Positions 1,586-25,000 of a stretch of DNA of 43,009 nucleotides are shown piece after piece. Both the position numbers and the translations under genes were made by a program. The notes beneath the pieces were generated by a model. It worked only from the letters and a program-made list of their open reading frames with translations, did no database searches and had not been told where the DNA came from. The stretch covers positions 1-43,009 of the forward strand of contig JBJXHA010000271.1 in the NCBI GenBank assembly GCA_046160275.1, written 5' to 3'. This stretch comes from Bacteroidia bacterium. GTDB taxonomy: Bacteria > Bacteroidota > Bacteroidia > J057. Position 1 is the first letter of the stretch. Each line of letters opens with the position of its first letter.

Positions 1586-1593
1586 TATTTTTG
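1586..1593 (+). promoter_or_regulatory. -7 promoter box TATTTTTG
   Basis: TAnnTTTG match 35 nt upstream of ATG 1628. It lies inside the ORF-track extension that starts at 1574. Confidence 0.5.
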
Positions 1594-1627
1594 CACACAC
1601 AATTATTCATTTATCAATTTTATTTTT

Positions 1628-2200: not shown

Positions 2201-2252
2201 AGGTGAGTTAAAAATAAAGTATCAAACTGATATGTTTTTTACCACCAAGTTT

Positions 2253-2341
2253 CACAAAGCATTTTCCACGAAGATACACAAAGCCAAGGTTAACGGTTTT
2301 TTCTGGGTGTAACTTTGTGCAAGTATTTCTGCTACTTTGTG
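2253..2341. promoter_or_regulatory. symmetric array of four CACAAAG/CTTTGTG heptamers (possible operator, or terminator of the upstream gene)
   Basis: CACAAAG at 2253 and 2277, CTTTGTG at 2313 and 2335, mirror-symmetric about ~2297. A TAACTTTG box at 2310..2317 overlaps the third heptamer. The last heptamer is followed by GTTTTTT. Confidence 0.4.
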
Positions 2342-2425
2342 GTTTTTTACCTAAAGATGTGCAGGCTTTGTTTTCACTCGTTCCTAACTACAATTTTCCA
2401 TTTTCCATTCTCAATTACATAAATT

Positions 2426-3289: not shown

Positions 3290-3408
3290 ACTTCTAACAT
3301 TTTTTAATAAAAAGCAGCGAAAAACAGAAAAATTTCGTTTACACAATAAATAGAGTAAATATTTGTTGATATATTAGTTGTCAGCGAATTGACTGGATTT
3401 ATTAAAAA

Positions 3409-4131
3409 ATGAAAAAATTAACTTACGTATTTTCTACTTGCTTTTTATTAGGACTTGTTTGGTTTGGGCAGGGCTGTGGAGGTCGCCTGCATAATGGGAT
3501 TACTGATTGTGTTCCAAAGGAGTATTTTGAGGTGTTGGGCGCAAAATTACTGTCTGTTCAAAAATGGATACCTGCTAATAATACCACGACTGCCTCTTTT
3601 CCGAGTGATATTTGGGAAGAGGCTCATCTTTTTTCTCAAGATGAACAACTTGAAATTCTCCTACAATTTGAGGTAAGTTTCTTTTCTACTTCTCAGTCGG
3701 AAATTCGCCAAAAAAACACAAGACCTTTTGAATTTAGTCTTTTTCCTAAAGCCTACGCCGATAAAATTTCGCCAACTCCCTGCGCTAATTTAGACGGTAA
3801 AAGAGGTACTCCCGACAAAATTAAAACATTTGAAATATTGACGATAGAAGATTTTGACGAAAATCACCCTGCCAATAGCTCCATCAACGAATATTTTAGT
3901 AAGCAAACTGCTGTAAATGAGGGTGTTCCTTTAAATGATTGGTTGCAAAATGTGGCATACGCCCAAAGCCTAAATACTGCGTTTATGGACGGTTTCTATA
4001 TAGGTGCTCATATACTTCGTTTGAATGTATTGCCCACTTATCAAAAAATACATCAATTCAAATTACATATTACTTTTGAAGATGGGCGTGTGTCAGTACT
4101 TACCTTACCTAAAATGTATTTCAACCAATAA
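3409..4131 (+). CDS. hypothetical lipoprotein, paralogue A of a tandem pair
   Basis: 240 aa with a signal peptide and Cys (GQGC). Shares CVPKEYFEV, FSLFPKAYA, PCANLDGKRGTPDKIKTFEILT and DGRVSVLTLPKMYFNQ with the next ORF. Confidence 0.75.
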   Translation: MKKLTYVFSTCFLLGLVWFGQGCGGRLHNGITDCVPKEYFEVLGAKLLSVQKWIPANNTTTASFPSDIWEEAHLFSQDEQLEILLQFEVSFFSTSQSEIRQKNTRPFEFSLFPKAYADKISPTPCANLDGKRGTPDKIKTFEILTIEDFDENHPANSSINEYFSKQTAVNEGVPLNDWLQNVAYAQSLNTAFMDGFYIGAHILRLNVLPTYQKIHQFKLHITFEDGRVSVLTLPKMYFNQ

Positions 4132-4145
4132 AATATAGCTAAAAT

Positions 4146-4841
4146 ATGAAAAGATTATCATTTCTTCTTTTACTTTCTTGTGTTTCTTTGTTATTTACGC
4201 ATTGTACCAATAATAGGTCAACAGGTTGTCAAGTAAAGGAATATTTTGAAGTTACAAACATCAGTACACTTGCTTTTCAGCGTTATCATATACAAACGGG
4301 TTCGCTTCAATTCTCGCAATCTGACTCTAATTTGCACCAACTTTATCAAGGAGAATATGCAGACTATACTTTTAAATTTAATGTTTCTTTTTTTAACGTG
4401 GGACAAGTAGAGCCACCTAAAACGCGCAAACCTACTTGGGATTTTTCGCCCTTTCCTTCTGCTTATGCGGTATTTATCCCTGAAGATCCTTGCGCTCAGT
4501 TTAATGGGAAAAAAGGAACTCCTGATAAGGTAAAGTCGTTTACTATTATGTCAAAATCGGATTTTGACGCAACTCATGCCGCAAATACTTCACTCAATAG
4601 TTATTTTAAAATTATGTTAGGATTTAGCGGTGAACAACAACCTTTAGAGGAATGGTTAACGAATGTGCTTTACCAAGAAATTCACAACAGAGAGTTCCAA
4701 ACGAGCCTTTACACGAAATCGTATGGCTTACGCTTAGAAGCTACTCCTAACCTTAATCAAATTCACGATTTATACGTCAAAATCGAATTTCAAGACGGGA
4801 GAATGGAAATACAAGATCTGCCTAAGTTTTATTATCAATAA
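4146..4841 (+). CDS. hypothetical lipoprotein, paralogue B of a tandem pair
   Basis: 231 aa with signal peptide MKRLSFLLLLSC. Shares CQVKEYFEV, FSPFPSAYA, PCAQFNGKKGTPDKVKSFTIMS and DGRMEIQDLPKFYYQ, collinear with 3409..4131. Confidence 0.75.
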   Translation: MKRLSFLLLLSCVSLLFTHCTNNRSTGCQVKEYFEVTNISTLAFQRYHIQTGSLQFSQSDSNLHQLYQGEYADYTFKFNVSFFNVGQVEPPKTRKPTWDFSPFPSAYAVFIPEDPCAQFNGKKGTPDKVKSFTIMSKSDFDATHAANTSLNSYFKIMLGFSGEQQPLEEWLTNVLYQEIHNREFQTSLYTKSYGLRLEATPNLNQIHDLYVKIEFQDGRMEIQDLPKFYYQ

Positions 4842-4876
4842 ATTGTTTACAGTGTTACTTCAAAAGGGGCTGTATA

Positions 4877-4912
4877 AAAAGTTCTGAACTCTTCGAAGAG
4901 TTCAGAACTTTT
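4877..4912. terminator. bidirectional intrinsic terminator (perfect 36-bp palindrome)
   Basis: AAAAGTTCTGAACTCTTC|GAAGAGTTCAGAACTTTT lies between convergent genes ending at 4841 (+) and 4930 (-). An A-run and a T-run flank it. Confidence 0.75.
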
Positions 4913-4929
4913 GAATTAACTAATCGTAA

Positions 4930-5373
4930 CTAATTTAATCTCCATTCCCACGCATCGCCAATTTCATGGTCTTGCACAATTCCCGAAAAAATAAAACCAT
5001 TTTTAGCTAAAATATTCGTAGAAACATTGTGTTCTGGTGCTGTTTTGGCGGTAATTATCATATCTGCCTGCGCCTGCCGAGCAATCTCAATCAAGGTTTT
5101 ACAAGCAAACGAAGCAATTCCTTGTCCCTCAAACGCTTGAAATGTCCAATAAGCAATTTCTACTTTTCCTGCTTGCGGCTGCCCTGTGTAACCACAAGAG
5201 CCAACTACCACGTCCCCTCGCATCACAAAATATCCCACCCAAGGAAAGTGATAGCCTATTTGTGCATAAAAATCCCGATATATCGCCAACAACTGCTGGC
5301 AATCGTCAGAAGCAAACAAAGGAAGACTTGCCTCTTCCTTTAAAGTAATGGGGATTAATTTCAGTTGGTTCAT
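4930..5373 (-). CDS. GNAT family N-acetyltransferase
   Basis: 147 aa. Acetyl-CoA binding motif QAFEGQGIASFACKTLIEIA (Q/RxxGxG/A) and GNAT-typical size and layout. Confidence 0.8.
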   Translation of the reverse strand: MNQLKLIPITLKEEASLPLFASDDCQQLLAIYRDFYAQIGYHFPWVGYFVMRGDVVVGSCGYTGQPQAGKVEIAYWTFQAFEGQGIASFACKTLIEIARQAQADMIITAKTAPEHNVSTNILAKNGFIFSGIVQDHEIGDAWEWRLN

Positions 5374-5400
5374 ATTCCAAAAAAATGTATAAACTATTCA

Positions 5401-5408
5401 CAAATTTA
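5401..5408 (-). promoter_or_regulatory. -7 promoter box TAAATTTG for the GNAT gene
   Basis: + strand CAAATTTA is TAAATTTG on the - strand, 27 nt upstream of ATG 5373. Confidence 0.55.
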
Positions 5409-5419
5409 GTTTTTTTCCT

Positions 5420-5427
5420 TATCTTTG
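5420..5427 (+). promoter_or_regulatory. -7 promoter box TATCTTTG for valS
   Basis: TAnnTTTG match 30 nt upstream of ATG 5458. It is divergent from the GNAT promoter. Confidence 0.6.
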
Positions 5428-5457
5428 CACCCTTATACAAAAAAAAACACCAAAAAA

Positions 5458-8088
5458 ATGATTTCTTCTAAGTACAATCCCTCTGAAATTGAGGACAAGT
5501 GGTATGCGAAGTGGGTGAGTAATCAACTGTTTAAGTCTATCCCAGATTCGCGTCCAGCTTACACGATTGTGATTCCACCGCCCAACGTTACGGGGGTACT
5601 TCACATGGGACACATGCTTAATAACACCATTCAAGATGTCTTGATCCGCCGCAAACGTATGAGTGGTTATAATGCTTGCTGGGTCCCTGGCACTGACCAT
5701 GCTTCTATTGCAACAGAGGCAAAGGTCGTGGGTATGCTGCGTGAGCAAGGGATTAAGAAATCAGAAATTGGTCGTGAAAAATTCCTTGAACACGCTTTTG
5801 AGTGGAAAGAAAAATACGGCGGCATTATCTTACAGCAGTTGCGCAAATTAGGTGCGAGTTGCGACTGGGATAGAACGCATTTTACGATGGATGAAGCCTA
5901 TTATAAGGCGGTAATTGAGGTTTTTGTAGATTTATACGACAAAGGTTACATCTATCGCGGTTTGCGCATGGTCAATTGGGATTGTGTTGCTTTGACTGCC
6001 GTTTCCGATGAAGAAGTAATTTTTGAAACGCATAATGATAAACTGTATTATGTTAAATACTTTATCGAAAATTCAGAGGAATTTGTAACGATAGCTACGA
6101 CTCGCCCCGAAACGATTATGGCTGACGTAGCGGTTGCTGTTCACCCTGACGATGAGCGTTTTAAGCATTTACACGGCAAAAAAGTGATAGTTCCTTTGGT
6201 AAATCGTGCCGTTCCTATTATCGCTGATGAATATGTGGACATGGAATTTGGAACAGGTTGCTTAAAAATTACGCCTGCACATGATAAAAATGACTACGAA
6301 ATTGGCACAAAACACAATCTTGAAGTCATTGATATTTTAAATCCAAACGGCACTTTAAGCGAAGCTGCACAATTTTTTGTAGGAGAACCCCGCGAAAAAG
6401 CGCGTAAAATGGTGGCAAAAGAATTGGCTGCAAGAGAATTATTGGCAAAAGAAGAGCCTTATACACATAAAGTTGGAACTTCGGAGCGCACAAAAGCCGT
6501 AATCGAGCCGCGCCTTTCTATGCAATGGTTTTTGAGCATGAAAGACATCTCAAAACCCGCTTTGGACGCTGTTCTCAACGGTGAAGTAACGCTTATTCCT
6601 GAAAAATTCACCAATACCTATCGTCATTGGATGGAAAATGTAAAGGATTGGTGTTTGTCGCGTCAACTTTGGTGGGGGCATCAAATTCCTGCCTATTTTA
6701 TCAAGGAAGAAGGAAAAGGGAATAACGAAAATGCGTTCGTAGTTGCAAGAACTTTGGAGGCAGCGGTTGAAAAGGCAAGAGTTTTAACAGGAAATCACAA
6801 CCTTCAAGCCAGCGATTTGCAACAAGATGAAGACGTATTAGATACTTGGGCTTCTTCTTGGCTTTGGCCTATCGAAGTTTTTAAAGGCTTGTCAAGCCCT
6901 GATAATGAAGACTTTAACTATTATTATCCGACCAATGATTTGGTAACTGCACCCGAAATTTTGTTCTTTTGGGTAGCGCGTATGATTATTGCGGGATATG
7001 AATATACAGGCAAAAAACCTTTCGACAATGTATATCTTACAGGAATTGTAAGGGATAAATTGGGCAGAAAAATGTCTAAATCTTTGGGCAATTCTCCCGA
7101 CCCTTTAGACTTGATTCGTGATTTTGGTGCTGATGGTGTGCGCGTAGGTATGTTGTTATGCTCGCCTGCGGGCAATGATTTGCCTTTTGATGAAGGTTTG
7201 GTAGAGCAAGGAAGAAATTTTGCCAATAAAATTTGGAACGCTTTTCGTTTGGTAAAAGGTTGGGAATTAACAGATACAGAACCCACTGAAATTGAACGTC
7301 TTGCAATAGATTGGTTCACTTCTCGTATGAATGAAGTAAGAACAGAACTAGACGATTTGTTTGAAAAATTTCGTTTGTCTGAGGCTTTGATGGCGATTTA
7401 TAAGTTGATTTGGGACGATTTCTGCGCCTATTTCTTGGAAATGGTAAAACCGCCTTATCAACAACCGATTTCTGCGGCTTCTCATCAAAGGATTCTTGCC
7501 ATTTTTGAAGAATTGATGTTGATTTTGCATCCTTTTATGCCTTTTATTAGCGAAGAAATTTGGCAAAATTTGGGAGAAAGAGGCGAAAATGACTCGATTT
7601 GTGTAGCGCAATATCCTCCTATTGGGGAAATGAATATTACGCTTTTGGCAGAAATGAATACGATTCAGCAGTTCATTGTGGCAGTTCGTGCTTTCAAAGC
7701 GGCAAAACAAATTCCGCCCAAAGAAAACATTGAACTCTATATCAAAACGTCAGAAACGGCTATTTTTCAAGCTTATAGCAGCTTACTAACCAAATTTTTG
7801 AGCCTCGAAAAAATGGAATTTGTAAGCGAAAAAGTAGCAGGCGCAGGCAGTTTATTAGCAGGAACAACTGAGGTATTTATCCCCCTCAAAAACATAGACA
7901 TCGCCGCCGAACAAGAAAAAGCGAAAAAAGAAATCGCTTACCTTGAAGGCTTCTTACAATCGGTAATGAAAAAACTCGGCAACGAAAAATTCGTAGCAAA
8001 CGCAAAACCCGAAGTCATTGCCGCCGAACAAAAGAAAAAAGACGATGCCGAAGCAAAAATTGAAATGCTAAAAGCAAGCTTGGTATAA
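5458..8088 (+). CDS. valS: valine--tRNA ligase
   Basis: 876 aa from ATG 5458; the ORF-track start at 5425 is a TTG inside the promoter box. Class I motifs are [13 protein letters not shown] (HIGH) and KMSKSLGN (KMSKS). A C-terminal coiled coil is typical of ValRS. Confidence 0.97.
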
Positions 8089-8110
8089 CAAAACCAAAAT
8101 CGAATAAAGA

Positions 8111-8149
8111 AAGAGGTGAAACTTTAAAAAGTTTTGCCTCTTTTGTTTT
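8111..8149 (+). terminator. intrinsic terminator after valS
   Basis: 14-bp stem AAGAGGTGAAACTT / AAGTTTTGCCTCTT (two G-U pairs), loop TAAA, followed by TTGTTTT. Confidence 0.75.
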
Positions 8150-8213
8150 ATGAGTTACAACAGGATCGCAGATAAAAATCAAAACAACCCTTTTTTCAAT
8201 TGTTTCTTTTTCG

Positions 8214-8221
8214 TACCTTTG
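8214..8221 (+). promoter_or_regulatory. -7 promoter box TACCTTTG for pheS
   Basis: TAnnTTTG match 18 nt upstream of ATG 8240. Confidence 0.6.
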
Positions 8222-8239
8222 CGTGATTTTTGAAAAAAT

Positions 8240-9277
8240 ATGAACATCGCAGCACTGCATAGTTATTGTGAGCAAAGTCTCGCTGAATTGGCGCAAATTA
8301 TGACTGTTCCTCTGTTGGAGGAGTGGTATAGAAAGCATTTATCTCGAAATGGGGAACTCCAAAACTGGAAAAAGGGGATTGGACAAGTGCCGAAAGAGGA
8401 AAGACCGCTTTTTGGAAAGGAAATTAATACCGTAGCGCAACAAATGGAAACGACTTTCTTTGCGCATCAAGAAAGTGTTAAACTCATGGAATTGAATGAG
8501 TTAATGAGCAAGGAGCGCATTGATGTAACTTTACCTGCTCGTCATTTGGCAACGGGTGGCTATCATCCTTTGCAACAAACACTGCGTGAGGTATATCAGA
8601 TTTTTCAAAGCATGGGCTTTGTCGTTTTTGATGCGCCGCACGTAGAATTAGATGAATATAATTTCCAAAAATTGAATATTCCGCCTTCTCACCCTGCGCG
8701 AGATATGCAAGATACCTTTTATGTGTCGGAAGATGTCGTGTTGCGTACGCATACTTCTCCTGGACAAATTCGGGCGATGGAGCAGTATGGAAATGGCGGT
8801 ACGGAACCTGTTCAAGTGATTTTACCAGGGCTTTGTTACCGAAATGAAACAATTACCGCACGTTCAGAGGTACAATTTCATCAGGTTGAGGGATTGCTTG
8901 TGAGCGAAAACGTAAGAATGAGCGATTTAAAAGGTATTTTGTTGCGTTTTGCGCGGGCAATGTTTGGCGAAAATCAAGAAATTCGTTTTCGTGGGAGCTA
9001 TTTCCCTTTTACTGAACCGAGTGTGGAGGTTGACATAAAATGTACGTTATGTGGAGGCGAGGGTCGTCGTGTGTGTAAGCACAGTGGTTGGCTCGAAATT
9101 TTGGGTGCAGGTTTGGTACATCCTTTTGTGTTGCAAAGTGGAGGTTATGACCCTTCAAAATTTAGAGGAATTGCCTTTGGCATGGGCATAGAACGCATGG
9201 TATTATTAAAACATCAAATTGGAGACATTCGCTATTTTTATCAAAATGATGTGCGCTTTTTGCGCCAATTTAGGTAA
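8240..9277 (+). CDS. pheS: phenylalanine--tRNA ligase alpha subunit
   Basis: 345 aa. Class II core motifs are HPARDMQDTFY, LRTHTSPGQIR, FRGSYFPFTEPS and GIAFGMGIERM. Confidence 0.96.
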   Translation: MNIAALHSYCEQSLAELAQIMTVPLLEEWYRKHLSRNGELQNWKKGIGQVPKEERPLFGKEINTVAQQMETTFFAHQESVKLMELNELMSKERIDVTLPARHLATGGYHPLQQTLREVYQIFQSMGFVVFDAPHVELDEYNFQKLNIPPSHPARDMQDTFYVSEDVVLRTHTSPGQIRAMEQYGNGGTEPVQVILPGLCYRNETITARSEVQFHQVEGLLVSENVRMSDLKGILLRFARAMFGENQEIRFRGSYFPFTEPSVEVDIKCTLCGGEGRRVCKHSGWLEILGAGLVHPFVLQSGGYDPSKFRGIAFGMGIERMVLLKHQIGDIRYFYQNDVRFLRQFR

Positions 9278-10234: not shown

Positions 10235-10270
10235 TTTCTTTCAAATAAACGTTTAATCTTATCGAAAACG

Positions 10271-10312
10271 AAAGAGGAGATTCCGCCCTAGTGGTGGATC
10301 TCCTCTTTTTTT
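10271..10312 (+). terminator. intrinsic terminator after the yceI-like gene
   Basis: 11-bp stem AAAGAGGAGAT/ATCTCCTCTTT, extended by CCGCC/GGTGG, followed by a T-run. Confidence 0.85.
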
Positions 10313-10686: not shown

Positions 10687-11085
10687 ATGAAATATACACA
10701 AACTTATCTTCAATTATGGTTGATGTTTGTTTTGGCTTTCTTATATGTGGGTTGCCAACAAGAAGAAAAAAAGGTTGAGGTTGTTACAGAAGAAAAAGCC
10801 CCTGTAATAGAAAAGACCGAAACACCTACCCCAACTCAGGTTTATTATGAAATTATTGATTCTCCTGAACAAACCTTTGGGTATGATATCTTCGTTCAGG
10901 GACAAAAAATGATTCATCAGCCTTATATTCCTGGGGTACAAGGCGCAAAAGGTTTTTCGACCAAAGCTGATGCCGAAAGAGTAGCTAAATTAGTGATAAC
11001 TAAAATACAAAGAGGAGAAATGCCGCCAACAGTTAGTTTAGAAGAACTAGAGAAATTACACATAGCATTGCCTCAATTCAAGTAA
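10687..11085 (+). CDS. small lipoprotein, DUF4907-like
   Basis: 132 aa with lipobox FLYVGC. FGYDIFVQGQKMIHQPYIPGVQGAKGFSTKADAERVAKLVITKIQRGEMPPTVSLEELEKL resembles DUF4907 family proteins as I recall them. It lies directly upstream of a Kelch protein. Confidence 0.6.
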   Translation: MKYTQTYLQLWLMFVLAFLYVGCQQEEKKVEVVTEEKAPVIEKTETPTPTQVYYEIIDSPEQTFGYDIFVQGQKMIHQPYIPGVQGAKGFSTKADAERVAKLVITKIQRGEMPPTVSLEELEKLHIALPQFK

Positions 11086-11193
11086 CAATATTGACCATTT
11101 ACACAATTTTAGGTTAAGAAATTACCTGAAATTAACCAACTTGCAAAATTGATTACCTTTCAAAAATTGTATTTCTTATTTTTATTTATACAA

Positions 11194-14100
11194 ATGCGTT
11201 CATATCAACATCTAACCTTCGCCACATCGCTCTTGTGGATTTTTATGGGTCTTACCTTCTCAGTTCATGCGCAAGGAACATGGACATTAAAACCTCAATT
11301 TGGAGGGGTTGCTCGTAAAGGAGCAGTGGGTTTTTCTATTGGTTCTAAAGCGTATGTGGGTACAGGGGAAGCGGCTAGTGGCGTTTTTAAAGATGATTTG
11401 TGGCAATTTGATGGCACTTCTTGGACTCAAATGGCAAACTTTCCTGGCGGAATTCGCACGCAATCGGTAGGTTTTACCATTAATAACAAAGGCTATATTG
11501 GTACAGGATATAATTATTCGGCAGGAAATTTTATCTATCGAAACGATTTTTGGGAATTTAACCCTACGTCTAATTCTTGGACACAAAAAGCGGATTTGCC
11601 CGCACAAGGAAGGTCAGAAGCCGTAGGTTTTTCGATTGGCGGAAAAGGGTACATTGGAACAGGCTATTATTATATTCAACCAATTGCAGAAGGGTTAAAT
11701 GATTTTTGGGAATACGACCCTACAACGAATCAATGGACACAAAAAGCAAATTTCCCCGCAGGAAAACGATATGCTGCCGTAGGATTTGCCGCAAATAATA
11801 AAGGAATTGTAGGAACAGGAAGATATATTAATACCTATTATAGTGATATGTGGGAATTTAATCCTAATGGTAATACATGGACTTCTCGCCCTGCTTTGCC
11901 TGGCGGAAACCGCCGCAGAGCTGTGGGTTTTTCATTATGTGATATTGGATATGTAGGAACAGGTGAAGATGTCAATGGAACAAAACTGAGCGATTTTTAT
12001 CAATACCAAGCGGCAACTTCTTCTTGGGCAGCTATTACCCCTTTTCCTGGAGGTACTGTTGAAAGTGCTGCCGCTTTTGTTTTTAACAATAAAGGCTATA
12101 TTGTTACAGGGAATTATACAGCAGGATTGTCTAAGATTTTTTACGAATTTACCCCTAGTACACCTTGCGTGAATCCTTGTGGCTTAACTCAACCCGCAGG
12201 TGCAGACAAAACGATTTGTTCGGGAAATAGCGTATCGATTGGTTCAACCTCTGTGGGAGGAATGTTATATTCTTGGTCTCCTTCTACGAGTTTAAGTTCG
12301 GGAAGTGTTGCTAATCCAACGGCTTCTCCCAATAATACCACTACTTATTATGTGTTTATTACCAATGCTGCTGGCTGTTTCCAAACGGATACGGTAGTTG
12401 TTACGGTAAAACCTTCTCCCACAGCCAATGCAGGCGCACCACAAACGATTTGCGCTAGTCAATTGGTTCAAATTGGGCAAACTGCGGTAGCAGGTGTTAC
12501 CTATTCTTGGTGGCCAAGTACCGCTTTAAGTAACCCTGGTATTTCTAACCCATTTGCAACGCCCACCACTACTACGACCTATACTTTGTATGCGACAGGT
12601 TCAAACGCTTGTACCGCGCAATCTTCGGTAACAATTACGGTAAATTCAGTTCCTACTGGATTAGCAGGTGCCAATAAAAGTATTTGTATAGGACAAAGTA
12701 CAACGATTGGTTTGACTTCTGTTTCAGGTTTAACCTATGCGTGGTCTCCCTCAACAGGCTTAAATGCAACAAATATTGCCATGCCTACGGCAAATCCAAC
12801 GACTACAACATCTTATGTATTAACCGCAACCAATTCTTCTAATTGTCAAAGAAAAGATACCGTTGTGGTAACTGTAAATCCATTGCCTACTGCCAATGCT
12901 GGCGCAGATAAAAATACCTGTGCGGGTGTTCCTGTGCAAATTGGAAATACGGCAGCCGCAGGTTTCTCTTATGTATGGACTCCTACTACGGGCTTGAGCA
13001 ATCCTAACATTGCCAATCCAACCGCTACGATTACAAGTACTACTACTTATAGTTTGACTGTAACTAACAATCAAACAAACTGCTCTGCAACAGATGTAAT
13101 GGTAGTGATAGTAGCACCTGCGCCTACTGCTAACGCAGGCGCGGATAAATCCACTTGTGCAGGAACAGCAGTAAGTATCGGTTCTGCTGCGGTAACAGGT
13201 GTTACCTATTCATGGTCACCTGCAACAGGATTAAGTTCTGCTACGGCAGCAAACCCAAGTGCAAATCCAACAACAACAACAACTTATACCGTATATGCTT
13301 CTAACGGAAACTGTACGGTTTCAGACCAAGTAGTAGTAACTGTAAAACCTTTGCCTGCGGCAAATGCAGGAGCAGACCAAACCATTTGTTCGGGTTCTTC
13401 GGCACAAATTGGGCAAACTGCTGTATCAGGGGTAACTTATTTATGGTCACCTTCTACAGGATTGAGTTCCGCCACAGTCGCGAATCCAAGTGCGTCGCCC
13501 ACCTCCACAACTACCTATACTTTAACTGCTACTTTAAATGGTTGTACCAAAATAGATAATGTAATAATTACAGTAGCAGCTGCGCCTACTGCCAACGCAG
13601 GTGCAGATAAAACTACTTGTGCAGGAACAGCAGTTAGCATTGGTGCTACTGCGGTGGCAGGTGTTACCTATTCATGGTCACCTGCTACGGGATTAAGTTC
13701 TGCCACAGTTGCCAATCCTTCGGCAAATCCCACAACCACAACCACTTATACTGTTTACGCAAGCATAGGAAATTGTACTAAATCAGACCAAGTATTAGTA
13801 ACTGTAAAACCTTTACCTGCAGCAAATGCAGGGACAGACCAAACTTTATGTTTGGGTTCTTCAATACAAATTGGACAAAATACGGTAAATGGCGTAAGCT
13901 ATTCTTGGTCACCTGCTACAGGCTTGAGTTCTGCAACAATTGCTAATCCGATTGCCTCTCCTACGACTACAACTACTTACACTTTAACCGCTACTTTAAA
14001 CGGTTGTACCAAAACAGATAATGTTACAATTACCGTAGCTTCTTCTGTTACGGCAAATGCTGGCGCAGATAAAACGATGTGTTCAGGAACGCCTGTAAGT

Positions 14101-17100
14101 ATTGGTTCTGCTGCAGTAGCGGGGGTAACGTATTTATGGTCACCTGCAACAGGATTAAGCTCTGCTACCGTTGCCAATCCAACGGCAAATCCAACGGCTA
14201 CCACAACTTACACTTTAACGGCTTCTGTTGGGAATTGTAGTAGTTCTGACGCGGTAGTTGTTACGGTAAAACCTAGCCCTGCGGCAAATGCAGGAGCTGA
14301 TAAAACTATCTGTGCAGGAAGTTCAGCGCAAATTGGGCAAACAGCAGTAACAGGTGTAACGTATTCATGGTCGCCTAGCACAGGATTAAGTAATGCAAAT
14401 ATTGCTAACCCTGTTGCATCACCTACGGCTACCACTACCTATACTTTAACTGCTACTTTGAATGGTTGTAGTAAAACAGATGTGGTAATTGTGAATGTGG
14501 GAGGAAGTGCAACTGCAAATGCAGGTGCTGACAAAACAATGTGTATCGGCTCACCTGTAAGTATTGGTGCTACTGCTGTGGCGGGAGTTACCTATTCATG
14601 GTTTCCTACAACGGGATTAAGTTCTGCTTTTGTTGCGAATCCTACGGCAAATCCAACGACGACAACAACTTATACGGTATATGCTTCTGTTGGAAATTGT
14701 GGAGGTTCAGACCAAGTAATTGTTACTGTAAATTCGCTTCCTACGGCAAATGCAGGAGCTGATAAAACGATTTGTGCAGGCGGTTCTGTGCAAATTGGAA
14801 CTGCTGCAGTTTCTGGGATGACTTATAATTGGTCTCCTAGTACTGGATTAAGTAATGCAAATACTGCTAATCCTATTGCATCGCCTACAGCTACTACCAC
14901 TTATACTTTAACTGTTACCAATTCAAATACAGGCTGTAGCAAAACTGATGTTGTCATTGTAAATGTAAGCAGCGGCGCATCTGTAAGTGCAGGGGCGGAT
15001 AAATTTATCTGTACAAATGGCAGCACTTCAATTGGAGGAACAGCCGTAACAGGTGCCTCTTATTCATGGTCGCCTGCCACAGGTTTGAATAACATTAATA
15101 TTGCAAACCCAACAGCCTCTCCTTCGGTTACAACCACTTACATCGTTTATAATCTTGCGGCAACTGCGGGTTGTGGCGCGACTGATACGGTTATTGTTAC
15201 CGTACTTACGCCACCAACTGCAAATGCTGGTGTAGATAAAACAATTTGTGCAGGCGCATCGACGACAATTGGTGTTGCTGCAGTTGCAAATCTTACCTAT
15301 AGTTGGAGTCCTGCTACGGGTTTGAGTTCAGCTGCGGTAGCGAATCCAACTGCATCGCCTACAACGACAACTACTTATACTTTAACTGTTACCAATCAAG
15401 GAGGTTGTTCTTCTACTGATGTGATGATAGTAACTGTCAATGCTTCTCCTGCCGCAAATGCAGGACCTGATAAAATGATATGTATTGGAAATAGCGTGCA
15501 AATTGGAGCAACTGCTGTAACAGGTGTGAGTTATTCATGGTCACCTGCTACGGGATTAAGTTCAGCAAGTGCTTCTAATCCAACAGCATCTCCCACGACA
15601 ACGACTACCTATACTTTAACTACAACGAGTGCTAGTAATGGTTGTAGTCGTACAGACCAAGTAACAGTTACGGTAAATTCCTTGCCACAAGGAACGGCGG
15701 GTAGCGATAAAAATTCTTGTTTAGGAGGAAATGCGCAAATTGGAACAACCGCAGTAGCAGGCTATAGTTATAGCTGGAGTCCTGCCACAGGTTTGAGTAG
15801 TGCAAGCGTTTCTAATCCAACGGCATCGCCTTCGGTTACAACTACTTATACTTTAACGATTACAGATAATAATACGGGTTGTAGCAAAACAGACCAAGTA
15901 GTTGTAAATATTACTTCTGGTCCTGGTGCGAATGCAGGAGCTGACAAAGGGATTTGTCAAGGTCAATCAGTTCAAATTGGAACTGCTGCAATAAGTGGAT
16001 TAACTTATCTTTGGACTCCTAGCACGGGCTTAAACTCAACCACAGGTGCGCAGCCTTTTGCCTCTCCTTCTGTTACAACTACCTACACTTTAACGGTAAC
16101 AGATCCTAATACAGCTTGTTCTAGTACAGATTTGGTTACAGTAATTGTAGGACCTTCTGCTAGTTTTAATGCAGGACCTGATAAGGCAATTTGTATTGGC
16201 GGAAGTGTGCAAATTGGAGCTGCTCCAGTTTCTGGTTATTCTTATAGTTGGACTCCTTCTACTAATTTGAATAATGCATTGGTTGCAAATCCGATTGCAA
16301 ACCCAACAGTTACAACGGTTTATCAAGTTACTGCTTATACAACAAGTGGAGGTTGTGGCGCGATTGATACGGTAATCGTTACAGTGAATAGTTTGCCAGT
16401 AGCAAATGCAGGCGCAGATAAAACGGTTTGTTCTGGTTTGTCTGCTCAAATTGGCTCGGCAGCAGTAAGTGGAATTACTTATTCCTGGACACCTACCACA
16501 GGTTTGAGTAATCCTAGTATTTCTAATCCAACGGCAAGCCCTTTATCTGCAACGACTTATACCGTATTTGCTATCAATAGTTCTACGGGTTGCACAACTT
16601 CAGACCAAGTTCAAGTAACGGTAAGCACTAGCCCTACGGCAAATGCAGGGGTGGATAAAACGTATTGTCAAGGAACACCTGTACAAATTGGTACGACTGC
16701 GGTAAGCGGTTTGACTTATACTTGGTCACCTTCTTCTACTTTAAGTAATGCTTATGTTTCTAATCCTTTAGCAAGCCCTAATTTCACAACTACTTACAAT
16801 TTGACGGTAAGAAATGCAGCGGGTTGTACGGCTACAGACCAAGTAACGGTTACTGTAAATGCGAGTTTGAATGCGAGTGCTGGGGCAGATAAAAATATTT
16901 GTATTGGAAACACTGTGCAATTAGGTACAACAGGAGCTACGGGAGTTTCTTATAATTGGAGTCCAAGTACAGGATTGTCTTCTAATACAGTAGCTAATCC
17001 GATTTCAAATGCTACGGCTACCACGACTTATATTCTTACAGTAGTAGGAAATGGCTGTGTAGATAAGGACACTGTGGTTGTAAATGTAAATCCAAACGTT

Positions 17101-17883
17101 GCGCCACTGGTAAATGCAGGGGCAGATGTTACGATTTGTCAAGGAGAATATGCAAATATTGGGGCAAATGGAATTAATGGAATTAATTATGCTTGGGCAC
17201 CTGCCGCGACTGTTGTAAACCCCAATATTGCGAGTACTTTGGCGGCTCCCAATGCTACGACTAATTATATTTTAACTGCCACCAATGGTGCTACAGGTTG
17301 TGCAAGCAAAGATACCGTAAAAGTTACAGTAAATCCTGCACCTAATGCAAATGCAGGTCCCAATAAAACAATTTCGCTAGGAGGAACGACTGCGATAGGA
17401 ACAGGGGCGCAAGCAAATGTAAGTTACAATTGGAGTCCGAGTATGACATTGAGTGCTGCTAATATTCCTAATCCAATTGCTTCTCCGACCACTACCACCA
17501 CATACATTGTAACGGCAACGAACAACAATAATGGGTGTATTGATAGAGATACAGTGGTTGTGTATGTTACTGCACCTATTTGGATTTCTTCTCATAACAA
17601 AACTACGGGAATTGACGAAAATCGTGCACAAAATACTGTATATCAAGTATATCCAAACCCTACGGAAAATGTATTGAATGTTACATCAGCAGAAATGATG
17701 GAAGGTGAGGTAAAACTTTCGATTAAAAATAGCATAGGGCAAACTTTATGGTTACATGAACTAAGCCTACAAGACGAAATGATAAATCATGTCATAGATT
17801 TGTCGAATTTTGCGCAAGGGGTATATTTCTTGCAAATAGAGCAGGCAGGGCAAATCATTACGCATAGAATTGTAAAGCAATAA
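11194..17883 (+). CDS. giant T9SS cargo: signal peptide, six-blade Kelch propeller, 23 tandem two-Cys Ig-like modules, type-A C-terminal sorting domain
   Basis: 2229 aa from ATG 11194 (MRSYQHL...SVHAQ); the ORF-track start at 11149 is a TTG. There are six Kelch-type repeats (AVGFxI..KGYIGTG...NDFWEFNP..N.WTQKA.FPG). The 23 modules span 12190..17577. The C-terminus YQVYPNPTENVLNV...GVYFLQIEQAGQIITHRIVKQ matches the Por_Secre_tail pattern. Confidence 0.9.
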   Translation: MRSYQHLTFATSLLWIFMGLTFSVHAQGTWTLKPQFGGVARKGAVGFSIGSKAYVGTGEAASGVFKDDLWQFDGTSWTQMANFPGGIRTQSVGFTINNKGYIGTGYNYSAGNFIYRNDFWEFNPTSNSWTQKADLPAQGRSEAVGFSIGGKGYIGTGYYYIQPIAEGLNDFWEYDPTTNQWTQKANFPAGKRYAAVGFAANNKGIVGTGRYINTYYSDMWEFNPNGNTWTSRPALPGGNRRRAVGFSLCDIGYVGTGEDVNGTKLSDFYQYQAATSSWAAITPFPGGTVESAAAFVFNNKGYIVTGNYTAGLSKIFYEFTPSTPCVNPCGLTQPAGADKTICSGNSVSIGSTSVGGMLYSWSPSTSLSSGSVANPTASPNNTTTYYVFITNAAGCFQTDTVVVTVKPSPTANAGAPQTICASQLVQIGQTAVAGVTYSWWPSTALSNPGISNPFATPTTTTTYTLYATGSNACTAQSSVTITVNSVPTGLAGANKSICIGQSTTIGLTSVSGLTYAWSPSTGLNATNIAMPTANPTTTTSYVLTATNSSNCQRKDTVVVTVNPLPTANAGADKNTCAGVPVQIGNTAAAGFSYVWTPTTGLSNPNIANPTATITSTTTYSLTVTNNQTNCSATDVMVVIVAPAPTANAGADKSTCAGTAVSIGSAAVTGVTYSWSPATGLSSATAANPSANPTTTTTYTVYASNGNCTVSDQVVVTVKPLPAANAGADQTICSGSSAQIGQTAVSGVTYLWSPSTGLSSATVANPSASPTSTTTYTLTATLNGCTKIDNVIITVAAAPTANAGADKTTCAGTAVSIGATAVAGVTYSWSPATGLSSATVANPSANPTTTTTYTVYASIGNCTKSDQVLVTVKPLPAANAGTDQTLCLGSSIQIGQNTVNGVSYSWSPATGLSSATIANPIASPTTTTTYTLTATLNGCTKTDNVTITVASSVTANAGADKTMCSGTPVSIGSAAVAGVTYLWSPATGLSSATVANPTANPTATTTYTLTASVGNCSSSDAVVVTVKPSPAANAGADKTICAGSSAQIGQTAVTGVTYSWSPSTGLSNANIANPVASPTATTTYTLTATLNGCSKTDVVIVNVGGSATANAGADKTMCIGSPVSIGATAVAGVTYSWFPTTGLSSAFVANPTANPTTTTTYTVYASVGNCGGSDQVIVTVNSLPTANAGADKTICAGGSVQIGTAAVSGMTYNWSPSTGLSNANTANPIASPTATTTYTLTVTNSNTGCSKTDVVIVNVSSGASVSAGADKFICTNGSTSIGGTAVTGASYSWSPATGLNNINIANPTASPSVTTTYIVYNLAATAGCGATDTVIVTVLTPPTANAGVDKTICAGASTTIGVAAVANLTYSWSPATGLSSAAVANPTASPTTTTTYTLTVTNQGGCSSTDVMIVTVNASPAANAGPDKMICIGNSVQIGATAVTGVSYSWSPATGLSSASASNPTASPTTTTTYTLTTTSASNGCSRTDQVTVTVNSLPQGTAGSDKNSCLGGNAQIGTTAVAGYSYSWSPATGLSSASVSNPTASPSVTTTYTLTITDNNTGCSKTDQVVVNITSGPGANAGADKGICQGQSVQIGTAAISGLTYLWTPSTGLNSTTGAQPFASPSVTTTYTLTVTDPNTACSSTDLVTVIVGPSASFNAGPDKAICIGGSVQIGAAPVSGYSYSWTPSTNLNNALVANPIANPTVTTVYQVTAYTTSGGCGAIDTVIVTVNSLPVANAGADKTVCSGLSAQIGSAAVSGITYSWTPTTGLSNPSISNPTASPLSATTYTVFAINSSTGCTTSDQVQVTVSTSPTANAGVDKTYCQGTPVQIGTTAVSGLTYTWSPSSTLSNAYVSNPLASPNFTTTYNLTVRNAAGCTATDQVTVTVNASLNASAGADKNICIGNTVQLGTTGATGVSYNWSPSTGLSSNTVANPISNATATTTYILTVVGNGCVDKDTVVVNVNPNVAPLVNAGADVTICQGEYANIGANGINGINYAWAPAATVVNPNIASTLAAPNATTNYILTATNGATGCASKDTVKVTVNPAPNANAGPNKTISLGGTTAIGTGAQANVSYNWSPSMTLSAANIPNPIASPTTTTTYIVTATNNNNGCIDRDTVVVYVTAPIWISSHNKTTGIDENRAQNTVYQVYPNPTENVLNVTSAEMMEGEVKLSIKNSIGQTLWLHELSLQDEMINHVIDLSNFAQGVYFLQIEQAGQIITHRIVKQ
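12190..17577 (+). repeat. 23 in-frame tandem repeats of 231-240 nt (77-80 aa) inside the giant CDS
   Basis: Consensus is ANAGADKTIC.G..VQIG..AV.GVTYSWSP.TGLS.A.VANPTASPT.TTTYTLT....GC...D.V.VTV...P, with one Cys near each end of almost every module. The array is 5388 nt, i.e. ~234 nt per module. Confidence 0.9.
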
Positions 17884-17963
17884 AGTAGGGGATAGTTGAT
17901 AATGAAAAATTACAATAATTGACCTATTCTTGTTTATTTGCGATAGTAAAATACGAAAAAAGG

Positions 17964-18006
17964 AAAGGTGTGGTTAAGTTTCGACTTAACTACACCTTTT
18001 TATTTT
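17964..18006 (+). terminator. intrinsic terminator after the giant gene
   Basis: 16-bp stem AAAGGTGTGGTTAAGT/ACTTAACTACACCTTT (one G-U pair), TTCG loop, followed by TTTTATTTT. Confidence 0.85.
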
Positions 18007-19831: not shown

Positions 19832-21973
19832 ATGATTCGTTTTCTTTCATTATCCATCTTACTCTGTACCTATTTTGGCTCGCTGATGGCTCAACCTCTG
19901 CTGAATAAAAAGTTTGGGGAAGATAAAGGCGATAAAGCAGAAGCAATTGTGCAAACTACTAATGGTGATTACATCATGGTGGGTTATACTTTTCCAAAAG
20001 GAAGAGATAATGCCGACATTTGGGTGATTCGTATGTCCAAAAATGGGGATAAGCTGTGGGAATATAAGCCCCTAAAAGACGGACATGACTTTGTGTCTGA
20101 CTTAATTTTGGCAAAAGATGGCGATATCGTTGTTGCGGGAAATGTAGGCGTGAAAGGAGATAGTCGCAATACAAAAGGGTGGATTGCTAAGTTAGATGCA
20201 ACGAAAGGAACGCTTAAATGGGAAAAAACCTTTGGCACAAAAGGCGAAATTGTAAGAGATGTTATTCAAACTTCTGATGGCGCTTTTGTCTTTGCAGGTG
20301 CTTCAGCTACGATGACAAAAGGCTCTTATGATTTGTGGGTAGGAAAACTTTTTGTCAATGGGGATTTGATGTGGGAGAAAAAATATGGTGGCACGCAAGA
20401 TGATAGAGCGACAAGTGTCGTAGAAACAAAAGATAGAAATATTCTTGTTGGCGGCTATACCATGTCTTTTGGAAATGGCATGAAAGATATGGCTTTACAT
20501 AAAATAGAGCTTGCTACAGGGAAAGAAATGTGGAGTAAAACTTATGGCTCAACCTTAAATGATGTGCTAACAGGTTTGTTAGAACTTCCTAACGGACAAA
20601 TTATTCTTTGTGGAAATACACAATCTGATAAAACGCGCGGTGCTGGTAGAACGGATGGCGAGTTAATTTTGGTTGATAAGGCTGGAACAGTTATTTGGGA
20701 TAAATTATATGGCAAATCAGGAGATGATAGCTTCGAAAGTGTGATTAAATCGAATGATGGAAGCTTGGTTGTGGCAGGAAGTCTTGCTGATAAAGGAATG
20801 TGGGTGCAAAAAATCAATATGCAAGGTGAGGTTGTTTGGCAGGCTTCTACTACCAATGATTTAGATGAGCAAGCAAATGCAATTTCTGTTACCAAAGAAG
20901 GAGGATATATTGTAGCTGGGGTTTCTAAAAATGGTTCAGCTGGTGAAAGCGATGCTTGGGTGTTTACTGTAACGGATAAAGGTGCGTTTAAAAATGAAGT
21001 ACCAGCAGTTGCCGTAAATCCTGCAAAACCTACTTCTGACCCTAAAAAACCTGGCACCAATGATCCTAAGAAGCCAACCAAACCTAGCACTAACGGAACG
21101 TCTGTGGCGGGAACTCCAACCAAACCAGCTCCTGCAAAACCAACTCCTACAAAACCTGATGCAACCAAACCAAATCCAAACTTGACCTTGGAAAAAGGAG
21201 AAACTATCGAGGATTTGATGAAGCCAAACTTGTATATTTTGGCAGTGGGCGTTTCAGATTACAATGACCCTAAATACAACCTTACTTTTGCACATACCGA
21301 TGCTGATTCTGTGGCGGAAATGTTTGCAACGATGAAAGGGAAAATTTTCAGAAAAGTTCAAGTGAAAAAATTATTGAACCAAGATGCAAGTTTGGTTAAT
21401 ATTAAAGTAGCTATCAATGAGTTAGAGCAACAAGCGACCCAAAAAGACATGGTGTTAATGTTCTTTTCTTCTCATGGTGCGCTGGATAGTAAAGGAAATT
21501 TATACATTTTGCCTTATGATTTTAGCCCTGTAAGCCTTTTTGCTACGGGTTTGAATATCAAGGATATAACAAGCGGCGTAAATGGTACGCCTTGTAAAAA
21601 ATTGATTTTCTTAGATGCTTGTCATAGCGGCGAATCGGGCAATGATTTGTTAGAATTTGCTTCTTTAAAAGATGCGAGCATTGACAACATTGTGAAAGAA
21701 GTAGCGGAAGCTGATCCAGGAATTAGCATTATGACTTCTTCTACGGGCAAAGAGTATTCTTACGAAAAACCATCTTGGGGACACGGCGCATTTACAAAAG
21801 CTATTTTGGAAGCTTTGCGTGGTGGTGCTGATTTTAACAAAGACAAAACAATTGGTTTTGCAGAGTTAAACCTTTATGTTTCTGAAAGAGTAAAAGAATT
21901 GACCAAAGGGAAACAACATCCTTATACGCCTATCAATATTTTTGGAAACATTCCTTTGTTTGTTTTGCCATAA
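19832..21973 (+). CDS. exported caspase-family (peptidase C14) protein with an N-terminal seven-repeat propeller-like domain
   Basis: 713 aa with signal peptide MIRFLSLSILLCTYFGSLMAQ. Seven ~45-50-aa repeats (..DG..hhhG......D.Wh.Kh...G...W.K.YG) precede a Pro/Lys/Thr-rich linker at ~21015..21180. The caspase core has the His-Cys dyad motifs FFSSHGA (His codon 21473..21475) and FLDACHSG (Cys codon 21620..21622). Confidence 0.85.
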   Translation: MIRFLSLSILLCTYFGSLMAQPLLNKKFGEDKGDKAEAIVQTTNGDYIMVGYTFPKGRDNADIWVIRMSKNGDKLWEYKPLKDGHDFVSDLILAKDGDIVVAGNVGVKGDSRNTKGWIAKLDATKGTLKWEKTFGTKGEIVRDVIQTSDGAFVFAGASATMTKGSYDLWVGKLFVNGDLMWEKKYGGTQDDRATSVVETKDRNILVGGYTMSFGNGMKDMALHKIELATGKEMWSKTYGSTLNDVLTGLLELPNGQIILCGNTQSDKTRGAGRTDGELILVDKAGTVIWDKLYGKSGDDSFESVIKSNDGSLVVAGSLADKGMWVQKINMQGEVVWQASTTNDLDEQANAISVTKEGGYIVAGVSKNGSAGESDAWVFTVTDKGAFKNEVPAVAVNPAKPTSDPKKPGTNDPKKPTKPSTNGTSVAGTPTKPAPAKPTPTKPDATKPNPNLTLEKGETIEDLMKPNLYILAVGVSDYNDPKYNLTFAHTDADSVAEMFATMKGKIFRKVQVKKLLNQDASLVNIKVAINELEQQATQKDMVLMFFSSHGALDSKGNLYILPYDFSPVSLFATGLNIKDITSGVNGTPCKKLIFLDACHSGESGNDLLEFASLKDASIDNIVKEVAEADPGISIMTSSTGKEYSYEKPSWGHGAFTKAILEALRGGADFNKDKTIGFAELNLYVSERVKELTKGKQHPYTPINIFGNIPLFVLP

Positions 21974-22054: not shown

Positions 22055-25000
22055 CTATTCCAACTTAATATTCAGCATACCGCAAGCGTTTAGATTCGAT
22101 TCTAATTTCAATGACCGCTCCACCGTTCCATCGCTAATAGACATAGAAATCGTATTGGGCGGGACGTTTCCTAAATTATGTGCATATAAAATAATGAAAT
22201 TATCGCCCTCATTCAGCTCAACTTCAATAGCTTTCTTTGCTTTTTGCAAACCGAAATGTTCTAACACCCAAACACCATTGAGATTTAAAGAAAGTGTATC
22301 ATTGTCTTGCGCCCCATGATCCCACACTAATAGTTTTACTTTTTTATTATGAACAATCACTTCTTCGGGCTGTTTCACGCGCCTATCGAGAATAGATTGT
22401 GGCTTGCCTCCTTGTGAATATTTTACAAGTTCAGGCTTTTTCGGCTCTTTTTTAGGAGCAGGTGTAATAGGTTTCGGTTCTGGTTTGATGACGGAAGGTG
22501 TACTTACGACATCAGGGGTTTTTGGCTCATTTTTTTCAATGGGCTTTTCTTTTTTCTCATTTTTCGCCAACTTACAATCGTTTACGCGCTGAGGTTCAGA
22601 AGATTGTGCGCATTTAGCAGTAGGGGAGGAAACTAATACACGATAATCTCCTGCTTTTTTTGCATAAAAAGTAGGTTGAGTTGCGTTAGGAATCAAATTG
22701 CCGTCTATCGTCCAGCGATAGGTCAAATCTTTTTGCACTTTGGTAAATAATTTTACAGAATCTCCATTGCAAATAGTCAAAGGAGGCATTTCCATTTTGT
22801 TATCCTTAAAACCATAACGCGAAATCACCAAAGTAGGTGCTTTTTGAGGCGAAGGACTTGCATCAATCAAAGCGCGACCTCGTACATTTCCCGCAAAAAA
22901 CAAATCGCCATCATCATCAGTAAAAATTGTAGGCTCTTGGCGATCATCTTTGTTTGCATTTTGTCCCTGCCACAAAGCTGTCATCGGCTCTTTTGAACCA
23001 ACAATGTGGCGTGTCAAGAAATAATCATCAGGTGAGCGTGTGATGCCACATAAATAAATGTATTCTCCGCCTGTTTGCGCAATTCTCACCTTTTTTATTA
23101 CTGAAGAAGGTGCGTAAACGGCATCTTCCCAAGTAGGATTACCAAAATTATTATATTTATAAATACGATTATTTAATACAAGATAAATGAATCCATGACA
23201 ATCTATTTTCATGTCGCCTGTACCATTAGGCATCGGCGAAACGGCAATGCGTTTTACCCAGTCTTGCTTGCCATCTGCTGTAAATTTTGCCAAAAAGAAA
23301 TTATCTAAATTAAGGGCTGCCCTCAAAATAGGACTTCCAAAATTGGCAATTCGCTCAAATTCGCCAATCATATACACATTTCCTATACAGTCTGCTCCCA
23401 ATCTTGCGCCAAAATCGTCTTTCATTCCATCAACCGCAATTACGCGCATCCATTCTAATTTCCCAAAAGGATTGTGTTTTGTGAGAAAAACGCTCCCTCT
23501 CCCTGCGGGAAATAAGGTTTCTCCCTCCAATTCTAAAGTATCGGTAAACCTACCCATCGTAAAAATGTTCCCGTTTGCGTCAATTGTCATGCCCAAAGTA
23601 GTAGGGTTTTTAGTGTTTTTTTGCCAAAGAATTTTCCCTTCAGGCGAATATTTTGTTAGAAAACGACTGTCACTTGCCATAACAACATTCCCTTCCCCAT
23701 CAGCATTCATGTAAAAAGCCTCTTCTTCATAAGCTAATTTTTCAGTTTTTGACCAAAGCAAATTCCCTTTATAATCATAACTATTCAGAATCTTCTCCCC
23801 TTTGTGAATCCCACTTAATAAATAATTACCTTTTCCCACTTTGTCTAAACTCTTGACAATGAAATCTTTTGCTTCAAATTTAGGCAAAACAGCAGGAAAC
23901 CATTCAGGTTCTAATACTTCCTCTTTTGTTCCTTTGTTGGCATTTTGCTCATTTTGCAATAGAGGGGCTTGCATTTTTTCAATTTTTACGGCATTCGAAT
24001 AAGCAGCACAAGTTTTATTAGCGGCTTTTACGCGATAAATTCCCGGCGTATTGGCATAATAGGTTAAGGCTGTCGCACCTGGAATTGCAATGTCATTTTT
24101 TGTCCATTGATAATTGGTTTCATAGGATTTTTGAATCCGTAAAGGTGTTGAATCTTCTGGGCAAAGCCACTGAACACTTGCCGAAATTTGCGCTTCGGGT
24201 ATGTCATGGAAAAAAATCGGCTTAGGTTTTGAAGTTTCAGTACAACCCTCCATTCTTCTCACTACAAAGTAAACGCCTGATTCTTTGACATTTAACCATC
24301 TTTCTGTGGCATATAAAACGGGCTTGCTATCTTTATACCATTGGTAATTAACATCTTTCCCCATCGTAAAACCCACTTCAAGTATGACAGAATCGCCTTT
24401 ACATTTCACGATGCTTCCTTCTGGAAAAACGGTAATGTCTTTACAGGCTTTCAAATCTAAGCGAAAAATATCGTGGCTGCCGTAGGTATTGGTTTCAGAA
24501 CACCAATAAGCGTAACGCCCATCTGCGCTCATCTGAAAATCAAAATCATAACCTGCTGTGTTGATAGGTGAGCCAATGTTTTGGGGTTTACTCCAATTTG
24601 TCCAAGTATTGTCAAGCCGTTGAGAAAAGAAAATGTCATGATTTCCTCTTCCGCCATGCCCATTGCTATCAAAAAAGAGAAATTTGCCATCTGGCGAAAG
24701 GTAAGGTGCATCTTCATCGGCGGGAGTATTCAACACATCGCCCATATTTATGGGAGTTGACCAAGTAGAATCGTTAAGCGGGAAACATACGTATAAGTCT
24801 GTTCCGCCATAAGAGTCATCGGCTACATTCGTGATAATCAAGGTTTTATCTTTGGTTAAAAAGTAGTCCTTATATGCACCTTCGTGTGCATATCCCTTGA
24901 TAGTTAGCCCTTTTTGCTCGCCCCAACTCCCGTCAGTGTTATTTTTGATACAATAAGCAACCCCTGCATCTTTTTGCCCAATTCGATTTGAAACGCGATT

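Follow-up and report, generated by a model that had tools for sequence, protein, structure and literature searches.

A Kelch-headed type IX secretion cargo on a GhpA-type stem and its candidate DUF4907 partner in a Bacteroidia bacterium

[quoted passage not shown] The large gene (11194..17883, +; 2229 aa counted from the ATG) specifies, in this order and on the same strand, a Sec signal peptide (11194..11271; aa 1-26), a six-blade Kelch beta-propeller (11275..12171; aa 28-326) as the predicted distal head, a stem of 23 tandem immunoglobulin (Ig)-like modules of the Ig_7/GhpA-stem type (12181..17592; aa 330-2133), and a type-A T9SS C-terminal sorting domain (CTD; 17647..17880; aa 2152-2229). 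An initial annotation of this DNA had described such a four-part protein preceded by a small gene, and every element of that description is present where it had been placed.

The stem is composed of 23 modules of 77-79 aa each, with starts at aa 335, 413 and so on up to 2054. Segmentation and a custom module hidden Markov model (HMM), which returned 23 copies, uphold the head-to-tail count given initially. In Pfam, the modules match Ig_7 (PF19081, "Ig-like domain CHU_C associated") with 209.1 bits over 15 stretches (gathering threshold 27.3). Eight modules searched by phmmer aligned with GhpA at E 1.5e-132 (446 bits, 11 stretches over GhpA 1241-5754). An AlphaFold2 (AF2) model of two consecutive modules, derived from an alignment of 22 paralogous module pairs, is all-beta with a mean predicted local distance difference test (pLDDT) score of 95.5. 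Its top five Foldseek matches in the Protein Data Bank (PDB) are cryo-electron microscopy fragments of the GhpA stem or base (E 1.5e-8 to 7e-8, 25-28% identity; GhpA structures are PDB 9flp, 9fls, 9flv, 9flw, 9flx and 9fly), ranking above the Ig domains of titin and contactin. The modules are thus homologues of the GhpA stem repeats in both sequence and structure. Neither the PKD models PF00801 and PF18911 nor the SprB repeat PF13573 was listed for the large protein in Pfam at E <= 0.1, which rules out a PKD or SprB identity of the modules; the sole PKD-like match was K319L-like_PKD (PF22352; 41 bits, one stretch). The initial annotation had set the module apart, by eye, from PKD domains and SprB repeats. 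That separation stands, but a reading of the module as matching no known repeat does not, since the modules score strongly to curated Ig_7 and to the characterised GhpA, a protein of the same general layout.

The expected pattern of one N-proximal and one C-proximal Cys per module was recovered in 22/23 modules, at position 8 and at positions 60-62, with module 23 lacking the first. Additional Cys residues occur at aa 249, 325 and 329, and the total is 48. Both module positions align with Cys residues of GhpA repeats in the phmmer alignment. One disulfide per module would fit the predicted strand order, since the two residues are both placed close to the sandwich's N-terminal end. In GhpA, disulfides join neighbouring Ig-like domains (bioRxiv 10.1101/2024.01.29.577165); when the GhpA disulfide Cys2988-Cys3140 is set against the module Cys positions, two alignment registers conflict. 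The stalk is nearly uncharged and rich in Thr, Ser and Ala. Enrichment of the Bacteroidota O-glycosylation motif D(S/T)(A/I/L/V/M/T) was considered and rejected (7 sites vs 7.8 +/- 2.6 expected); all 7 sites read DTV and occupy one common module position. Modules 5-12 form a sub-array with a two-module period (13110..14759, +), for which Tandem Repeats Finder (TRF) reported a period of 462 nt, 3.6 copies and 75% matches, and in which two module types alternate (protein identity 78% at lag 2 vs 61% at lag 1). Modules 5 and 7 share 81% DNA identity, and their codon changes, 26 synonymous against 8 nonsynonymous, mark an old duplication under purifying selection, not an assembly artefact.

At the N terminus, the open reading frame (ORF) can be extended to a TTG (11149..17883, +; 2244 aa), and the ATG at 11194 yields the signal peptide MRSYQHLTFATSLLWIFMGLTFSVHA, after which the mature protein begins with QGTW. 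This assignment was read from the sequence, in which a basic n-region leads into a hydrophobic core and a cut after VHA (VHA-QG). The closest orthologue, P0275, reads STFA-QGTW at the same place, so that the mature N terminus is common to both proteins. Kelch models of Pfam cover aa 42-310 (PF24681 with 78 bits, plus Kelch_1, 3, 4 and 6), and six blades of the form W..P..R..AVGF...KGY.GTG...D.WE(F/Y) are legible by eye at aa 30-326, as expected for the six-blade propeller first proposed. Among PDB sequences, Kelch propellers are the only matches of the N-terminal 402 aa, with GhpA absent, and the list is led by Kelch domains that bind peptides, for example those of KLHL20 and KEAP1. The Kelch region has more than 5864 homologues, mainly proteins that combine Kelch with a T9SS CTD.

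The same head could in principle be catalytic. On this alternative, the large protein would be a surface-tethered enzyme, either a NanM-type mutarotase or a galactose oxidase-type oxidase, with the stem serving only as a spacer that carries the propeller past the capsule and the DUF4907 protein as a periplasmic inhibitor or maturation factor. The Kelch domain passes the Pfam NANM model (PF24996; 53.5 bits, cut-off 45), which keeps an enzymatic head under consideration, and it matches Escherichia coli YjhT (PDB 2uvk) at E 1e-8 and, partially, the NCBIfam models NF010730, TIGR03547 and TIGR03548; many relatives are named "N-acetylneuraminic acid mutarotase" by JGI. The NanM match nevertheless spans only about two blades (aa 42-148), and the preference for peptide-binding Kelch structures speaks against catalysis, which we regard as unlikely. 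NanM identity itself was rejected, as the NCBIfam scores fall far under their cut-offs (55.5 vs 416 for NF010730, 39.2 vs 256 for TIGR03547 and 41 vs 243 for TIGR03548).

The C terminus scores above cut-off with both PF18962 (46 bits, cut-off 27; aa 2152-2226) and TIGR04183 (39.5 bits, cut-off 23), in keeping with the T9SS sorting domain of the initial annotation, and is of type A. Pfam and NCBIfam gave no match of the large protein to CHU_C or TIGR04131, the type-B CTD models, and the CTD searched by itself produced weak matches to solved type-A CTDs and none to GhpA. These results also bear on whether the protein is an SprB-type gliding motility adhesin, propelled along the cell surface. It is, like SprB, a large repetitive T9SS cargo of Bacteroidota, and many of the proteins that best match its repeats bear the annotation [quoted passage not shown], but the absence of a PF13573 match, of a type-B CTD and of an adjacent SprF/PorP-like gene makes this role very improbable. 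The sole other CTD protein seen in the window (35943-39413, -) is 1157 aa long and contains PKD_4 domains along with a C-terminal Por_Secre_tail.

The small gene (10687..11085, +; 132 aa, PF16250) ends 108 nt upstream of the ATG of the large gene. The intergenic spacer (11086..11193, +) has no significant structure (folding z -1.54), and a terminator scan gave no site in it. Two strong intrinsic terminators enclose the pair. The first (10270..10312, +), which closes the upstream YceI gene and sets the 5' boundary of the two-gene unit, is a hairpin with a U-run (-25.3 kcal/mol, z -5.74; 0/200 shuffles equally stable) and was also recovered by a consensus scan at 10282-10298; the second (17962..18003, +), the 3' boundary, is an 18-bp hairpin with a U-run (-23.3 kcal/mol, z -6.78). 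Both the uninterrupted spacer and the flanking terminators noted initially are thus borne out. The gene 3' of the unit encodes a metallo-beta-lactamase-fold protein (Lactamase_B_2).

Association of DUF4907 with Kelch genes extends well beyond this locus. A genome scan with a 10-sequence DUF4907 alignment returned 80 loci. Nearly all belong to Bacteroidota, in the orders Chitinophagales, Flavobacteriales, Bacteroidales, Sphingobacteriales and Cytophagales. In 48 of the 80, the DUF4907 gene is immediately followed by a same-strand Kelch ORF, 45 by a strict rule and three (L025, L048 and L035) by inspection, and in 7 further loci a Kelch ORF is found immediately upstream. When the enrichment test was restricted to ORFs of at least 200 aa, 43/62 immediately downstream ORFs were Kelch positive, compared with 34/649 elsewhere (odds ratio 41, Fisher p 7e-33), and on the opposite strand the count was 0/304. 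Measured between the DUF4907 stop codon and the Kelch ORF's first ATG, the median gap is 30 nt, and 43/45 gaps do not exceed 120 nt. Among complete Kelch partners, 25/29 end in a T9SS sorting domain (23 Por_Secre_tail, 2 CHU_C); their remaining domains differ (multi-propeller, Gly-rich, Reelin-B, FN3), so that the constant is the combination of Kelch and T9SS signal. The linkage also holds from the Kelch side, where a DUF4907 gene is found directly 5' in 7/9 loci, including those of three of the four giants of the same architecture; cultured carriers among these loci are Emticicia soli, Flavobacterium psychrotolerans and Puia sp. P3. The co-occurrence of the small gene with Kelch/T9SS genes, first suggested from a single locus, is thereby confirmed. 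It could still be argued that the DUF4907 gene is a mere neighbour with no functional tie to the large gene, because about 30% of the family adjoins unrelated genes, as does P0002, the nearest homologue of the window copy, and because the 108-nt spacer is longer than usual. Conservation of same-strand order and short gaps across Bacteroidota orders, with the enrichment given above, and adjacency in three of four same-architecture relatives render chance proximity extremely doubtful.

Several loci depart from the common arrangement. In L041 (8790-13211), DUF4907 is followed by a protein with ALK_LTK glycine-rich, Ig_7 and Por_Secre_tail domains, and in L076 (1434-3065) by an NHL-repeat propeller, neither being Kelch. 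The order is reversed in L078, L079 and L084 (~4300-8400 each), where three tandem Kelch genes of ~400 aa precede one DUF4907 gene, which suggests that one small protein may serve several Kelch proteins. DUF4907 genes, some with Kelch, also occur in metagenome-assembled genomes labelled Verrucomicrobiae, Bifidobacteriaceae or Rhodoferax (L019, L033, L077, L061); the contigs concerned are probably mis-binned Bacteroidota.

The DUF4907 protein itself matches PF16250 with 66.6 bits (cut-off 25) at aa 61-122. It combines a signal peptide bearing a lipobox-like FLYVG-C, an acidic linker rich in Pro and Thr, and a conserved core (aa 52-123). Family core motifs are FGYDI, IHQPxIPGxxGxxGF and KVAxLVIxKIxxGxMPPTV, and FGYDI, IHQPxIPG and MPPTV are all found in the window copy. 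A word-index search recovered one homologue only; family size was therefore taken from an exhaustive search, which returned 2313 representative clusters at E <= 0.001, the best 150 listed being all 86-193 aa long. The AF2 model (mean pLDDT 89) consists of a three-stranded meander followed by two helices, with the most conserved residues in loops. No solved structure was matched by sequence at better than E 0.5 (phmmer and an 88-member profile), and Foldseek searches with this model gave best values of E 0.83 in PDB and 0.18 in BFVD. In the literature search, we found no paper mentioning DUF4907 and no relevant paper combining kelch with type IX secretion or T9SS. A lipobox-like Cys is present in only 36/151 representatives, which makes lipid anchoring an optional trait, and the "lipoprotein partner" of the initial annotation does not hold as a general description of the family. 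Both the window copy and the DUF4907 partner of the closest orthologue (locus L085) do have this Cys. In L085, a 245-aa GldM_3rd protein, carrying a domain of the T9SS/gliding motor component, is encoded at 4216-4953, ~600 nt 5' of the DUF4907 gene.

Relatives of the large protein were found by whole-protein search and their domains called with custom HMM scans. Four share the architecture. P0275 (2082 aa, 57% identity) has a Kelch head, 21 modules and a type-A CTD, whereas P0277 (3781 aa) has Kelch, at least 29 modules, PKD_6 and a CTD, P0323 (2230 aa) has extra propeller repeats and 12 modules, and P0356 (1335 aa) has Kelch, 11 modules and a CTD. A DUF4907 gene precedes three of the four. 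With 11 to at least 29 modules among these relatives, stalk length is variable within the architecture. Many other top hits have only the Ig_7 array in common with the window protein, carry PKD, Big_9, CUB, GEVED, SprB or other heads, and mostly end in type-B CHU_C. The occurrence of Ig_7 arrays under so many different heads gives the stem the look of a reusable scaffold. In L087 (3630-19346), two tandem giants with Kelch, Ig_7, PKD_6 and CTD (3781 and >2438 aa) come after a single DUF4907 gene, and a gingipain-like Peptidase_C25 gene lies just upstream.

Within this framework, DUF4907 and the large gene would be expressed as one transcription unit. The large protein would be exported by Sec, fold and become oxidised in the periplasm, and be recognised by the T9SS through its type-A CTD; by analogy with other type-A cargo, cleavage would come next, and the C terminus would attach the protein to the cell surface. 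The 23 Ig-like modules are predicted to form an extended stalk that holds the Kelch propeller at its distal tip as a ligand-binding head. Homology to GhpA supports the C-terminally anchored stalk with a distal adhesin or capture head that had been proposed, and the protein would accordingly be a fibre that reaches out to adhere or capture. As to its length, scaling from GhpA at ~4 nm per module makes ~90 nm more likely than the "tens of nm" of the initial annotation. The DUF4907 protein, which has a separate signal peptide and lacks a T9SS domain, would be a dedicated partner of the Kelch domain rather than the stalk; its most likely role is to bind or escort the propeller, either in the periplasm or at the outer membrane, and in the window locus it would be lipid-anchored. 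A broader proposal, which we offer tentatively and would not put at even odds, is that DUF4907 is a cargo-specific T9SS accessory, a small periplasmic or lipid-anchored protein that recognises Kelch propellers and is required for them to stay export-competent, masked or correctly mounted. Combined with Kelch heads whose GhpA-type stems are adjustable in length (from 11 to at least 29 modules), it would constitute a phylum-wide, previously undescribed two-gene surface-fibre cassette.

Several observations weigh against a Kelch-headed fibre with a dedicated DUF4907 partner. On the side of the small protein, the ~30% of DUF4907 genes without an adjacent propeller gene include P0002, which shares 68% identity with the window copy; in its locus (L001, 550-891), it stands between a glycosyltransferase fragment on the upstream side and, downstream, a gene on the opposite strand. 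The same-architecture relative without a DUF4907 gene is P0356, and the 108-nt gap of the window locus, at the long end of the range, could hold a promoter of its own. On the side of the large protein, the NANM match and the mutarotase names of its relatives are compatible with an enzymatic head, and Pfam scans of 20 other window ORFs gave no T9SS machinery, PorP/PorE-like or T6SS gene. In L001, a beta-helix/SprB T9SS protein is encoded 2 kb from the orphan DUF4907 gene.

Other features of the window lie apart from the two-gene unit. At the 5' edge, tRNA-Gly(GCC) and tRNA-Asp(GUC) occupy 8-81 and 183-258 (-). A 713-aa secreted protein (19832-21970, +) has N-terminal repeats, a Pro/Thr/Lys-rich linker and a C-terminal caspase domain (Peptidase_C14), and GC skew peaks at 0.367 in this region (20001-21000). 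A 1089-aa protein encoded at 22058-25324 (-) contains PD40 (WD40-like) beta-propeller repeats and no further recognised domain.

Fibres of the GhpA kind are known, and what is new here is the Kelch head with a type-A CTD, the DUF4907 partner being the more novel element. The pairing of DUF4907 with Kelch and CTD offers a first way into the function of a family comprising >2300 clusters for which we found no literature, and it is present in cultured species in which it could be tested, namely Flavobacterium psychrotolerans, Emticicia soli, Daejeonella oryzae, Adhaeribacter soli, Taibaiella soli and Puia sp.

Among known systems, NanM/YjhT (2uvk) is a six-blade Kelch propeller like the head, to which it is partially similar in sequence, but NanM is a free periplasmic enzyme and the head misses its equivalog and subfamily models widely. 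The short Kelch and Por_Secre_tail proteins of Bacteroidota (~400-580 aa), which frequently go by the name "Kelch repeat-containing protein" or else "N-acetylneuraminic acid mutarotase" in annotations, have a Kelch head that is 40-50% identical and share the type-A CTD. A DUF4907 gene often lies directly 5' of these proteins too, as in E. soli, F. psychrotolerans and Puia sp. P3. Their head-to-CTD spacer is absent or limited to one FN3 or PKD domain, whereas a stem of 1800 aa is inserted here. The large proteins of the Ig_7 family (PF19081), to which the window module belongs, that the search returned mostly end in type-B CHU_C and carry PKD, Big_9, CUB, GEVED or SprB domains, not Kelch.

The closest comparison is with GhpA of Aureispira sp. 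CCB-QB1, a protein of 5898 aa that has a Sec signal and is, on experimental evidence, a T9SS substrate; its N-terminal, adhesin-like hook module stands at the distal end of a stem of 52 Ig-like repeats, each with likely O-glycans near Thr/Ser (bioRxiv 10.1101/2024.01.29.577165). The GhpA fibre is heptameric, hollow and 240 nm long, the end that bears the T9SS sorting signal is anchored at the outer membrane, and genes for PorP-like and PorE-like proteins (ghpB/ghpC) follow 3' of ghpA (bioRxiv 10.1101/2024.01.29.577165). Head, stem and T9SS signal come in the same order in both proteins, which also share homologous repeats of similar fold, a conserved pair of Cys positions and a surface rich in Thr/Ser. 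These likenesses could mean that the window protein is a true grappling hook, with several chains, seven as in GhpA, forming a rigid hollow fibre with which an ixotrophic predator catches prey and a Kelch ring replacing the hooks. The differences make this quite unlikely. The window protein has a Kelch propeller, the only PDB match of its N-terminal 402 aa, in place of the unrelated 1400-aa hook module; 23 repeats and 2229 aa against 52 and 5898; and a type-A CTD without a match to the type-B C terminus of GhpA. Its locus has a DUF4907 gene upstream instead of adjacent PorP/PorE genes, the next gene being of metallo-beta-lactamase fold, and Pfam scans of window ORFs gave no T6SS gene. Ig_7 repeats, moreover, are spread over thousands of further large T9SS proteins whose heads are diverse. 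Given the Kelch head, the type-A CTD and the lack of PorP/PorE genes among the scanned ORFs, the window protein is not a GhpA orthologue. As GhpA showed in 2024, long and rigid fibres for capture can be made from T9SS cargo, and the Kelch-headed protein described here uses the same stem repeats with another head, another anchoring signal and a variable repeat number. A shared stem under differing heads, anchors and lengths suggests that the grappling hook may be one case of a modular family of reach-out fibres.

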